NCBI GenBank assembly: GCA_903924465.1
Contig: CAIYBN010000137.1
Location: forward strand, 2,606 to 66,605
Length of the DNA: 64,000 nt
DNA from: an uncultured Myxococcales bacterium
GTDB lineage: Bacteria; Myxococcota_A; UBA9042
Reading direction: 5' to 3'
Part shown: piece by piece, positions 44,818 through 54,969 of the stretch
How the letters are laid out: every line of letters starts with the position of its first letter
How positions within the stretch are numbered: position 1 is the first letter of the stretch
Translations under genes and position numbers: made by a program
Notes under the pieces: model-generated
Database searches by the model: none
What the model was told of the DNA's origin: nothing
Seen by the model: the letters and a program-made list of their open reading frames with translations, nothing else

Positions 44818-45228
44818 TTATGCGCCTTTTCGCGCGGATTTCCGTGCGGCGTACAGGCGACGCAAGGCTGGTGCCCGATGCGACCACGCAATGCCAAGAC
44901 GCCGCGTCCACGTCCCGAGGCCCCCTTCACCGGCGATCGCCAAGACCAGCGTGCCCCAACGAACGGCTTCCACGCGGCCCAGAATCGCGCTGAGCGGTAC
45001 CGGCGGATCTTCGCGCGCGGTCGTGTCGCCGCGGGCGATCAGGCAGGTCGCTTCCAAGCGGATGACGCGATGCAGGACCACGCGCGGGGCAAAATCGGCA
45101 ACGAAAGCGACCATATCACCGGGCTGCAACGCACCGATCGGCACTTGCCGCACGCCGGCTTGCAGGGGCGCGCCGAGCGGCCACATGGAATGCCCTTCCA
45201 AGTCGTGCCAGACCAGCGGCATCTTCAT
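44818..45228 (-). CDS. Soluble S24/S26-family peptidase-like protein
   Basis: GHSMWP (catalytic Ser box), GDMVAF, VVLHRVI, ARGD; ATGA overlap with the rSAM stop. Confidence 0.75.
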   Translation of the reverse strand: MKMPLVWHDLEGHSMWPLGAPLQAGVRQVPIGALQPGDMVAFVADFAPRVVLHRVIRLEATCLIARGDTTAREDPPVPLSAILGRVEAVRWGTLVLAIAGEGGLGTWTRRLGIAWSHRAPALRRLYAARKSARKGA

Positions 45229-46403
45229 CGGCCCGGCGTCTTGACGCGTGCGCCGCCGCTGCGCTGGCGTTTGTGAATGGGAAAGACAAACGTGTCGGCT
45301 TCCGGCGGTCGGCCTGCGTCTTCGGGGACGGAGGCCCACTGCTCGGGTGTGAACGTCGTGCCCGTCGCGCCTTCGTAGGCGAGCATGCGCGCCCGCGCCT
45401 CGGCGTGGAAGTGTTCGGGCGCTTTGCGGAAATCGCCGGTCGTTTTGTAAGCATCGCCGGGGCAAAACGTGCAGAACCCGCTGCCGGAGCACGACAGGCA
45501 CGAGGTCCGGTCGGCATTGGTCCAGGCAACGACGGATTTCCGCGCTTCGGATTCTCGCCAGATCTGGGCAAAAGTCTGCTCGCGCAGGTTGCCAAGCGTC
45601 ATGGGAAAGGTGATGCACGGCCAGACGCCGCCGTCCGGGCTGATGTACACCAGCGTTCGCGCGGCTTGGCAGGGGACGGTGTCCGCGCGCTCGGCCAAAT
45701 CCCGACCGCGCGTCGTTCCTTCCGCCAGAGCGATCAACTGCCGGGCGCGCACCATGTCCGTCCGAGATAGTTCCAATGAATCCAGCTTGTTGCTGCCAGA
45801 CAAATCCCGTTGCGTTGTCGTCGAAAACACGACTTCACAGCCTTCCGCGGCAAAAAAGCGAAAAATCTCCGGAATTTCCTCCACGGCTTCGCGCAGAACG
45901 TAGCACACGACCCGCACTGGAATGCGCGCGGCCAATGTCTGGCGAATTCCGGCGATCGTCGCGGCGAGAGATCCTGGTCGACGGGTCAACTCGTCGTGAA
46001 TCTCGGGGCGCAGGCTGTAGACGCTGACGTCCAACTGCGACGTTTTGCAAGCGTACAGGCGTTCCGCCCAAGCCGCGTCGATGTTGCCGGCATGGGTCTT
46101 GACCCGCGCGAACAGGTTCAGCGATGCGGCGTACGCAATCAGCTCGGCAAAGTCGGGGCGCAGCGTCACTTCGCCACCGCTCCACACCAGCGTCATGACG
46201 CCGGCCTCCGCGAGTTGCGCAATGGTCTCGCGCCATTCGCTCGTGGTCATTTCCGGGCCGTGCTTCTCGTCGAGGTAGCAATGTTGGCAATCGAGATCGC
46301 AGCGATAGGTCAAATCCAGATGCGCAAACATCGGGCGACCTTCCGCCGTCCACGCCTTGCGCATCACGGCCAGCATCGCGTTGTACGGCGACCGGTCAAG
46401 CAC
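45225..46403 (-). CDS. Radical SAM/SPASM-domain protein (peptide maturase type)
   Basis: LTYRCDLDCQHCY, SGGE, CQAA..ISPDGGVWPC..LGNLREQTF..IW, CLSCSGSGFCTFCPG; GTG start 5 nt after GGAGG. Confidence 0.92.
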   Translation of the reverse strand: MLDRSPYNAMLAVMRKAWTAEGRPMFAHLDLTYRCDLDCQHCYLDEKHGPEMTTSEWRETIAQLAEAGVMTLVWSGGEVTLRPDFAELIAYAASLNLFARVKTHAGNIDAAWAERLYACKTSQLDVSVYSLRPEIHDELTRRPGSLAATIAGIRQTLAARIPVRVVCYVLREAVEEIPEIFRFFAAEGCEVVFSTTTQRDLSGSNKLDSLELSRTDMVRARQLIALAEGTTRGRDLAERADTVPCQAARTLVYISPDGGVWPCITFPMTLGNLREQTFAQIWRESEARKSVVAWTNADRTSCLSCSGSGFCTFCPGDAYKTTGDFRKAPEHFHAEARARMLAYEGATGTTFTPEQWASVPEDAGRPPEADTFVFPIHKRQRSGGARVKTPGR

Positions 46404-54622: not shown

Positions 54623-54969
54623 GGGGTCACCTTGGCTTGGGGATCGGCAGGTGCATCGGAATCGCGTGAAGGCACGGAGGTTGCCGGGACAGCTAGCTGG
54701 CGGGAAAGCAGCAGATCGAGAAATTCGGCGACATCTTTCTGGGCGAGCGCATCGGAGACGTCATAGTCGCGCCGGAGCAGGGCGGTCAGTTCCTCTGCCG
54801 AGACGCCATCGTCCGTGATGGCCAGTGCATCAAAGAGCTCGATGGCGGTCGCGGTGTGCAGACGATGAAACGCGCGGTCGCCGGTCACAACGAACACCTC
54901 GCCGCCCACCTTGCGGTGCGCTGCTTGAGGGTGAAGACGATAGCGAATTTGCGTGGTTGCGGTGGTCAC
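54619..54969 (-). CDS. Standalone PqqD-family RiPP recognition element (RRE)
   Basis: RKVGGEVFVV...FHRLH..A.ELF...SAEEL...L..DYDVS.ALAQKDVAEFLDLL..RQL; ATGA overlap with the giant gene; start estimated at GTG 54969. Confidence 0.85.
   Translation of the reverse strand: MTTATTQIRYRLHPQAAHRKVGGEVFVVTGDRAFHRLHTATAIELFDALAITDDGVSAEELTALLRRDYDVSDALAQKDVAEFLDLLLSRQLAVPATSVPSRDSDAPADPQAKVTP

Follow-up and report, generated by a model that had tools for sequence, protein, structure and literature searches.

A candidate RiPP-type peptide maturation operon with a gene for a giant lipoprotein in an uncultured Myxococcales bacterium

The window analyzed here is a stretch of 64,000 nucleotides (nt) from an uncultured Myxococcales bacterium (contig CAIYBN010000137.1 of assembly GCA_903924465.1, positions 2,606 to 66,605), and all positions given below without a locus name are those of this stretch. 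Between 44818 and 54969 it contains six open reading frames (ORFs), all on the minus strand, which encode, in this order, a PqqD-family protein, a giant lipoprotein of 2378 amino acids (aa), a small precursor peptide, a ScmC-like P-loop protein, a radical S-adenosylmethionine (rSAM)/SPASM enzyme and a small peptidase; the window sequence and the ORF list agree with the coordinates first noted for these genes in a reading of the letters alone (the sequence-only reading). The best reading of this gene set is a pathway of the kind that makes peptides synthesized by ribosomes and modified after translation (RiPPs), distantly related to the SynChlorMet/ScmC systems and functionally tied to the surface lipoprotein. 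On balance we lean, if not by much, towards the view that this one operon couples the maturation of such a peptide to a giant protein of the outer surface. What makes it unusual is that throughout a deep clade of uncultured Myxococcota it is permanently joined, with translational coupling, to a surface lipoprotein of 2378 aa.

Conservation and layout of the six genes

The order RseP, tsaB, PqqD, giant, precursor, P-loop, rSAM, peptidase and cpoB is kept in all 20 loci examined from the same family, with PqqD found upstream of the giant gene in 19 of them and the remaining locus ending at a contig edge, and the ScmC-like gene is present in 23 of the 24 other genomes of this family. Each marker of the cassette is single-copy in the source genome (94.6% complete, 149 contigs), where the PqqD protein is the sole PqqD match. 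In other families of the class the giant protein is 28-33% identical over nearly its full length and is encoded directly upstream of the rSAM enzyme, the P-loop gene lying between the two in five of six loci (tblastn), and PqqD is directly upstream of the giant gene in distant loci too. Through rSAM motifs 66 loci of the Myxococcota type were found, 47 of them with full flanks. In these 47 the giant gene was present 44 times (at identities down to about 30%), the peptidase gene 41 times and the P-loop gene 39 times, while PqqD and a cpoB-like downstream gene were each present in 36; these tallies come from single-sequence tblastn at E≤1e-2 and are lower bounds, the ScmC-like, PqqD and peptidase genes being probably undercounted. 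A homologous small ORF stands at the position of the precursor in all 47, recognized by pattern in 35 and by inspection in 12. The same order in 20 of 20 loci of the family and in most of 66 further Myxococcota loci puts the six-gene block far beyond chance, and the expectation of the sequence-only reading that the set would be conserved together is borne out. That reading had treated the giant gene as an oddity standing in place of an exporter; it is instead the most consistently co-conserved partner (44/47 loci), with a start that overlaps the PqqD stop.

The record titles of related loci name uncultured Myxococcota, Myxococcales, Deltaproteobacteria and Bradymonadia metagenome-assembled genomes (MAGs). 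In 13 further rSAM matches from other phyla the rest of the cassette is absent, save for a weak P-loop match in one (L109, E 2e-3) and a weak upstream peptidase-like match in another (L114, E 9e-3). Six records titled Klebsiella pneumoniae or uncultured Enterobacteriaceae (L046, L055, L060, L062, L069 and L073) hold the full Myxococcota-type operon with its flanks, and these titles look wrong. In the case of L034/L035, and also of L101/L104, one genome has the cassette on two contigs with identical match statistics, which is probably assembly redundancy. Within the genus (positions 42616-57645 of the window compared with loci L013-L017) identity is 43-46% for the P-loop protein, 53-56% for the rSAM enzyme, 51-62% for the peptidase and 66-70% for the giant protein, and for the flanks 85-88% for RseP, 82-88% for CpoB, 89-91% for LysM and 62-67% for tsaB. 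The greater divergence of the cassette is compatible with diversifying pressure, but because tsaB is also low no firm conclusion can be drawn.

The six genes had been described as separated by four overlaps and one 47-bp gap, and every one of these junctions was confirmed from the sequence. The PqqD stop and the giant start overlap in ATGA (54622-54619), and the giant stop (47486) is followed after 47 nt by the precursor ATG at 47438, which is preceded by a Shine-Dalgarno-like GAGGGAG. The precursor TGA and the ScmC-like ATG have one base in common (47259), while the ScmC-like stop (46398-46396) overlaps the rSAM gene by eight bases if the latter starts at GTG 46403. This start has GGAGGA 4 nt upstream and agrees with the N-termini of orthologues; the longest rSAM ORF would begin at TTG 46427. 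The rSAM stop and the peptidase start again overlap in ATGA (45228-45225). For PqqD the start at GTG 54969 likewise agrees with orthologue N-termini, the longest ORF extending to 55026. A consensus scan found no minus-strand terminator-like site within the block.

The precursor family and the proteins that would act on it

The identities given to the gene products from the letters alone, namely a PqqD/RiPP recognition element (RRE) protein, an rSAM/SPASM enzyme, an HprK- or ScmC-like protein, an S26-like peptidase and a precursor with a YxxP-type leader, were upheld by hidden Markov models (HMMs), profiles and two confident fold models. The PqqD-family peptide-binding protein (54619..54969, minus strand; 116 aa from GTG 54969) passes the Pfam PqqD model PF05402 (E 1.6e-5, 25.6 bits vs a cut-off of 23.4), and R19, D31, H35, D79 and F83 are invariant among its aligned orthologues; lasso PqqD models match 18 of 19 orthologues weakly, at 16 bits vs cut-offs of 70-80. 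The precursor (47259..47438, minus strand), assigned as an ORF with homologous small ORFs at related loci, has 59 aa, a leader with RRPYVQPQVETL that runs to LLAS, and then the core CPGGCVDCVDPQATGYQT. In an alignment of 35 precursors P26 and C46 are invariant and Y23 is conserved in at least 90%. The leader usually has a basic pair before P-[Y/W]-x-x-P-x-hydrophobic, followed by a hydrophobic stretch that in most cases closes with S or S-G. Short and variable, the core has at least one Cys in all 35 (one in 10, two in 9, three in 14 and four in 2), and its length, Cys number and Cys context differ widely, the cores being hypervariable even inside one genus. None of the 35 has an NCBIfam match at E≤1, and the 59-aa ORF of the window is also without a Pfam or NCBIfam family match. 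Leader codons had a lower non-synonymous than synonymous rate (dN<dS) in 39 of the 42 computable pairs, a result which is partly circular since the codon block was picked by amino-acid pattern, and 13 of 55 pairs were not computable.

According to the proposed mechanism, the 59-aa peptide would be translated and its [Y/W]xxP leader held by the discrete PqqD/RRE protein. A predicted complex of PqqD and precursor lends weak support to this, with a score of 0.44 vs 0.00 for the best of three controls, agreement of the runs in at least 90% of contacts and a predicted local distance difference test (pLDDT) value of at least 52 for the partner; of 80 solved complexes 58 reach the mark applied, as against 2 of 110 mismatched pairs, and at scores of 0.60 or under it is reached by only 7 of the 80 and by both mismatches, and as PqqD-leader complexes have already been solved the pass may reflect memory. 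The precursor was also considered as a lipoprotein or Tat substrate. Many members have a lipobox-like S-(G)-C and RR often stands before PY, but a hydrophobic core is missing and neither feature is universal, so this was rejected.

The rSAM/SPASM peptide-modifying enzyme (45225..46403, minus strand; 392 aa from GTG 46403) matches Pfam Radical_SAM (8.6e-18) and SPASM (1.3e-11) and has no fused N-terminal RRE. In 19 orthologues the cysteines of the CX3CX2C motif (C35, C39 and C42) are invariant, as are C245, C263, C302, C305, C311 and C314 of the SPASM region, nine invariant cysteines in all. When a profile of the orthologues was compared with the PDB the best matches were SkfB (4.8e-33), PqqE (5.1e-25) and the SuiB-type 5v1q (6.5e-20), so that the nearest solved relatives are peptide crosslinkers; anSME is also among the solved relatives (4e-7). 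All scores against NCBIfam equivalogs are far under their cut-offs. The pathway probably forms a Cys-based crosslink: this single enzyme would modify the short core, with a thioether of the sacti- or ranthipeptide type from the invariant Cys as the likeliest product.

The ScmC-like, HprK-related P-loop protein (46396..47259, minus strand; 287 aa) was recognized through weak NCBIfam matches and a fold model. It is composed of an N-terminal beta domain and a C-terminal nucleotide-binding domain of the HprK/PEPCK type, with conserved H140, an invariant Walker A motif ending in G160-K161-T-T163 and an acidic pair near 175-176. The protein of the window matches NCBIfam ScmC at 1e-5 (25 bits vs a cut-off of 125) and HprK_rel_A at 2.4e-4. 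Across the family the leading NCBIfam model is ScmC, which matches 22 of 23 members (E down to 5.4e-13, all under the cut-off), while HprK_rel_A matches 18 and HprK_rel_B 17 of the 23, all under their 200-bit cut-offs. Comparison of the structure model (pLDDT 89.6) by VIA-align gave PEPCK at Z 12.9 (252 residues aligned across both domains, root-mean-square deviation (rmsd) 5.5), and for residues 134-287 the HprK/P structures 3tqf, 1jb1, 1ko7 and 1knx at Z 8.8-10.3 (rmsd 2.8-3.3, 116-122 aligned), with the next unrelated chain at Z 4.1. The relation to HprK came from this fold search and not from the PDB profile search, in which the best 60 matches listed for the family alignment are P-loop and PEPCK proteins only. 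In the Atlas, as a lead, Pfam 38.1 ScmC is on 21-55% of members in the three best hit clusters, and 28 of 30 hits carry the set. Among 1.84 billion the family profile picks out 90 representatives at E≤1e-30, as against 5,921 at E≤1e-10, which indicates a small subfamily within a large superfamily. In the pathway this protein would perform an ATP-dependent step, in which it could either transfer a phosphoryl group to the peptide or use ATP to drive the peptide's handling.

The small S24/S26-fold Ser/His peptidase (44818..45228, minus strand; 136 aa) is the candidate leader peptidase, assigned by a weak NCBIfam match, a fold model and motifs. Its nucleophile, Ser14, lies within a G-x-S-M-x-P motif, and with the nucleophile so early in the 136-aa chain an N-terminal membrane anchor does not fit in front of it, as read by eye; a long basic helix (102-135) forms the C-terminus. 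Among 21 aligned members M15, P17, H53, R54, G67 and D68 are invariant, S14 is conserved in at least 90% and the RGD(T) motif is kept. The NCBIfam model sigpep_I_arch matches at 2.6e-4 (20.9 bits vs a cut-off of 51.85), and a PDB profile search gave signal peptidase I (SPase I) at 7e-3 and SEC11A at 9e-3, HRV being aligned with the corresponding stretch of SEC11A. The structure model (pLDDT 92.5) resembles SipA (Z 9.6), LexA (9.5), SEC11C (9.4) and E. coli SPase I (9.0) in VIA-align, with rmsd 2.4-2.9 over 87-93 aligned residues. All six matches at Z 8.2-9.6, which include the C-terminal domain of lambda cI and a second LexA entry, belong to clan SF, and unrelated small barrels reach Z 7.5 or less. 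The active sites of SEC11 and SipW are Ser/His dyads of the endoplasmic reticulum type, and we read the present peptidase as a putative cytoplasmic Ser/His enzyme with an active site of this kind, a comparison that the alignment with SEC11A supports. Leader removal by it would take place in the cytoplasm, close to the small residues that stand just ahead of the first core Cys, which would suit the preference of signal peptidases for small residues at -3/-1.

Clusters of the Atlas that match the peptidase carry the names S26 or S24/S26. This same small S24/S26-like domain is found there fused to ABC transporters (a 60-member cluster), and also to ScmC (117 members, commonest in Chloroflexota) and to NTP_transf_5 (96 members). 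These fusions are leads of the Rosetta-stone type which link the peptidase to ScmC systems and to export.

The giant lipoprotein and the possible roles of the peptide

The giant lipoprotein (47486..54622, minus strand; assigned from translation, Pfam and an orthologue alignment) begins with a basic and then a hydrophobic stretch, followed by an L-T-A-C lipobox. Pfam recognizes Big_13 (1.2e-12), Big_3_3 (4.1e-6) and FG-GAP (1e-5) and no other kinds of domain, and the protein consists of many Ig-like (Big_13/Big_3_3) domains with FG-GAP repeats at the C-terminus. A lipobox-type match is present in 35 of 50 orthologue frames, although about five of these look internal, and some frames end at contig ends. 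Full-length alignment of 31 orthologues shows even conservation (0.30-0.58 per 50-residue block) with 190 positions conserved in at least 93%, among which seven DxxGN motifs, many Cys pairs and FG-GAP loops of the DxNGDGxxD type are conspicuous. For the C-terminal 629 residues there are 50 database relatives with a coverage of at least 96%, of which 48 are 2252-2406 aa long, and those that are named are hypothetical or FG-GAP repeat proteins. We regard it as an adhesin-like protein of the cell surface, exported and rich in disulfides.

The gene identities, folds, conserved catalytic motifs, the precursor family and the deep single-copy synteny with the giant gene are shown by the present analysis. 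Single-copy occurrence, a place among envelope genes and the permanent union with the giant gene point to a physiological or cell-surface role rather than to an accessory antibiotic. Large FG-GAP lipoproteins are also joined to such cassettes in other ways. Two loci of another family (L125:12372-14987 and L126:12162-14702) encode a lipoprotein of 846-871 aa with an FG-GAP-like stretch between the rSAM and S26-like genes, a second, independent way of pairing a large FG-GAP lipoprotein with the cassette, and no precursor was found in them by eye. A further locus on a genome of one 6-Mb contig (L121:1029-10847) encodes a lipoprotein of 2877 aa ahead of a same-family precursor and a ScmC-like protein, with no rSAM gene detected within 2 kb downstream. 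That large Ig/FG-GAP lipoproteins are joined to the cassette in more than one arrangement speaks for a functional tie and against a frozen accident.

In the last step of the proposed mechanism the product would act with the 2378-aa Ig/FG-GAP lipoprotein as its ligand, subunit or adduct. We infer the type of crosslink, the action of the P-loop protein, the cleavage site, the export route and a physical link between peptide and lipoprotein, and this is equally the standing of the phosphorylation, crosslinking and leader removal that the sequence-only reading had ascribed to the pathway. A more specific version, which we regard as decidedly doubtful, makes the modified peptide a dedicated partner of the giant protein: a crosslinked, strain-variable peptide loaded onto or recognized by the Ig/FG-GAP protein in a two-part surface device. 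If this were true, the hypervariable core and the fast-evolving cassette could give each lineage an identity of its own, for instance in surface adhesion or in recognition between cells or kin, and there would be a RiPP class working as a protein subunit or ligand and not as a free natural product. Joint action of peptide and lipoprotein would in any case be a new use of RiPP chemistry.

Several observations weigh against the coupling of peptide and lipoprotein, or against parts of the proposed chemistry. Topology is the weak point: the enzymes and the peptide would be cytoplasmic, the precursor having no signal peptide, while the lipoprotein would be exported, which leaves their meeting unexplained. 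As had been remarked from the letters alone, the operon includes no dedicated exporter or immunity gene. The rSAM scores against the NirJ2, AhbD and PqqE models are as good as those against sactisynthases, which makes the crosslink type a guess. An acidic residue (D/E) stands within +1 to +4 of only 42 of 78 core Cys and in 7 of 35 cores follows none of them; a Cys-Asp thioether was thus rejected as a universal rule. Pfam gives no match for the ScmC-like protein, and Hpr_kinase matches 0 of 23 members. A passage in PMC8498205 describes that HPr-kinase homologues phosphorylate lasso precursors at the C-terminal Ser before folding. In the present family only 2 of 35 precursors end in Ser, and this modification was rejected; any phosphorylation would therefore be elsewhere on the peptide. 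For the peptidase, Pfam S26 and Pfam S24 each match 2 of 21 members at E<0.05, so that the assignment rests on fold and motifs, and Foldseek of the model against the PDB found nothing at E≤1e-3 (best LexA, 3.9e-3). The genomes with the giant-gene form are all MAGs. Finally, four loci have the cassette without the giant gene, from which it follows that the enzymes do not need the giant protein: L098 has PqqD, precursor, ScmC-like, rSAM and S24-like genes, and L124, L127 and L128 have the order peptidase, ScmC-like, rSAM, precursor.

Some further features of these giant-less loci may be noted. At L098 (L098:2897-8518) genes for two M16 (insulinase-type) peptidases and for an S41 peptidase that carries PDZ and CARDB/DUF11-type domains stand before the cassette, and after it come a PMT_2 glycosyltransferase-like gene and an ORF of 1326 aa without a Pfam match. 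In the other three, which belong to other families of the phylum, the nucleophile of the peptidase is Cys in place of Ser (G-D/S-C-M) with the His-Arg motif retained (L124:8862-9386, L127:9346-9777, L128:10859-11587).

The cassettes without the giant gene speak for the most serious competing explanation, a stand-alone secreted RiPP, antimicrobial or signal, of the sacti- or ranthipeptide kind, for which the giant gene would be a co-transcribed neighbor with an unrelated envelope role and the exporter would be encoded elsewhere. Cores that are hypervariable within one genus, as in many bioactive RiPPs, and, as a lead only, the peptidase-ABC transporter fusions of the Atlas, which recall export-coupled leader cleavage, would also be in accordance with it. 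We nevertheless hold it to be unlikely, as the giant gene stands between PqqD and precursor in 44 of the 47 full-flank loci at about 30-70% identity with its start overlapping the PqqD stop, as inheritance is single-copy and apparently vertical in a housekeeping and envelope setting rather than an accessory island, and as a transporter or immunity gene is absent from the operon.

That the pathway instead yields a cofactor or small metabolite derived from the peptide, comparable to pyrroloquinoline quinone (PQQ) or mycofactocin, with only the Cys and a neighboring residue kept and the product serving the giant protein or another enzyme, appears improbable. The list of parts equals that of PQQ and mycofactocin, PqqE is the second-best solved relative of the rSAM enzyme, the genes are single-copy and family-wide in a housekeeping neighborhood, and Cys is the sole invariant core residue. 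However, precursors of cofactors keep a fixed core motif, while here the core varies widely in its length, in how many Cys it has (1 to 4) and in what surrounds them; the operon is also without an oxidoreductase or another enzyme that tailors or uses a cofactor, and the giant protein shows just Ig-like and FG-GAP domains. Least probable of all is that the giant protein itself is what the rSAM enzyme, the P-loop protein and the peptidase mature, in the manner of anSME or QhpD, with the small ORF as an accessory or decoy. In favor of this are the tight co-conservation of the enzymes with the giant gene, the many conserved Cys of its product and the place of anSME among the solved relatives of the rSAM enzyme. 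Against it, all 47 loci, and giant-less cassettes too, have a dedicated small precursor with a leader of the RRE type, and the giant protein is a Sec-type lipoprotein without a leader-like [Y/W]xxP-x-hydrophobic motif near its N-terminus (by eye), the enzymes having no signal peptides.

Flanking genes and comparison with known systems

The position between tsaB and cpoB described from the letters alone agrees with Pfam, which identifies a TsaD-family (tsaB-like) gene and an M50/PDZ (RseP-like) gene in the upstream flank and a CpoB-like gene downstream. A promoter-like site (TTGTCA, 17 nt, CACAAT; 55090..55118, minus strand, 9/12 consensus matches) between the tsaB-like stop and PqqD is the candidate operon promoter, although the consensus scan of the region found 2 sites vs 1.7 expected from shuffles, a total not above the latter. 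For cpoB the same scan found no minus-strand promoter-like site, which does not agree with the candidate promoter of its own that the sequence-only reading had given it. The peptidase stop (44818) is only 6 nt from the start of the longest cpoB ORF (44811), so the operon may run on into cpoB. The CpoB-like TPR lipoprotein (43804-44811, minus strand; TPR_6 4.7e-18, YfiO 9.6e-7) and the LysM protein (42616-43785, minus strand; LysM 7.8e-7) may both be co-transcribed with it. These genes follow within a few bases and are linked in 36 of 47 loci, hence the block is not as clearly self-contained as was first thought. Directly downstream of the LysM gene lies a gene for a 577-aa FHA-domain protein (40656-42389, minus strand; FHA 7.2e-17, Yop-YscD_cpl 6.7e-09), and upstream of the RseP-like gene a divergent 642-aa ORF (57684-59612, plus strand) without a Pfam match at E≤1e-3. 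The sequence reads listed for the stretch are four DNA runs of lake-water metagenomes from one study.

No component of the operon, nor of the variant cassettes, reaches a curated NCBIfam cut-off, and the lack of a match to an already characterized class that the sequence-only reading had anticipated extends to the precursors (0/35 in NCBIfam). A search of the open full-text literature, the coverage of which ends at subscription journals, found no paper on the cassette, SynChlorMet or ScmC. A word search of PMC10288494 met none of the terms kinase, HPr, Myxococc, signal peptidase and lipoprotein; the cassette could sit in its supplementary compendium of about 15,000 rSAM proteins.

Of the general features of RiPP pathways with an RRE and an rSAM/SPASM enzyme, the operon has a PqqD domain, CX3CX2C with SPASM, and a short precursor, conserved in its leader and variable in its core, beside the enzymes. 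With the sacti- and ranthipeptides (SkfB, AlbA and StsB type) the operon shares an rSAM/SPASM enzyme that is closest to SkfB (4.8e-33) and a short Cys-bearing core. It differs from them in that the RRE is separate from the enzyme, the candidate leader peptidase has the S24/S26 fold, the AlbA, SkfB and StsB scores are far under their cut-offs and the thioether is presumptive. PQQ (PqqA/D/E) and mycofactocin (MftA/B/C/E) likewise pair a small peptide with an rSAM/SPASM enzyme, a peptidase and a discrete chaperone of the PqqD type, and are single-copy and vertically conserved too, but here the core is conserved at one Cys only, the scores are 88.9 vs 381 bits for PqqE and 82.3 vs 265 for MftC, and downstream cofactor-tailoring enzymes are absent. 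Lasso systems with an HPr-kinase homologue, of the paeninodin type, may be similar in their YxxP-type leader and discrete B1-like PqqD/RRE protein, and are similar in having an HprK-fold tailoring protein. Unlike in these, the B2 transglutaminase-type protease, the cyclase resembling Asn synthetase and the D transporter are absent from the six products (Pfam and NCBIfam, E≤0.1), and an rSAM/SPASM enzyme is found instead; judged by the lack of B2 and C genes, the present operon is not a lasso system.

In quinohemoprotein amine dehydrogenase the peptide QhpC is crosslinked by the rSAM enzyme QhpD and then assembled with a beta-propeller subunit. The likeness to an rSAM-crosslinked Cys peptide within a larger extracytoplasmic assembly containing a propeller is an analogy only, and the present operon differs in being without haem or quinone enzymes, a dedicated ABC exporter and a subtilisin-type protease. 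As for the single proteins, the ScmC-like protein shares fold and Walker A motif with HPr kinase/phosphorylase but falls outside its sequence family, and the peptidase shares the clan SF fold and Ser/His with S26 signal peptidases and S24 LexA-like proteins but stays below the curated HMM cut-off and has no membrane anchor.

The nearest named system is SynChlorMet, to our knowledge a cassette that has not been characterized and for which we know of no identified precursor. The sequence-only reading had drawn this link, and it is real in that one cassette unites a PqqD-family protein and an rSAM/SPASM enzyme with a P-loop protein of the ScmC family and that ScmC (TIGR04249) matches 22 of 23 members, yet distant in that all matches are far below the cut-offs (25 vs 125 bits for ScmC, 78.7 vs 400 for ScmE, TIGR04250, and 54.4 vs 400 for ScmF, TIGR04251). 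ScmD (TIGR04248) matches 3 of 19 PqqD members at E<0.05 but not the protein of the window, and SynChlorMet has two rSAM/SPASM proteins (ScmE and ScmF) where the present operon has one; three of the defining features of that system are thus absent here. On the other hand the present operon adds the S24/S26-fold peptidase, an identified precursor family and the giant lipoprotein. RiPP pathways with an RRE and an rSAM/SPASM enzyme are well known, but the combination with a ScmC-family PEPCK/HprK-fold protein, an anchor-less Ser/His leader peptidase and a new precursor family has not been characterized before. For the orphan SynChlorMet/ScmC kind of cassette it would provide the first substrate peptides to be clearly identified, unless some have been named elsewhere, and the 47 natural precursor variants would serve as a ready substrate panel.

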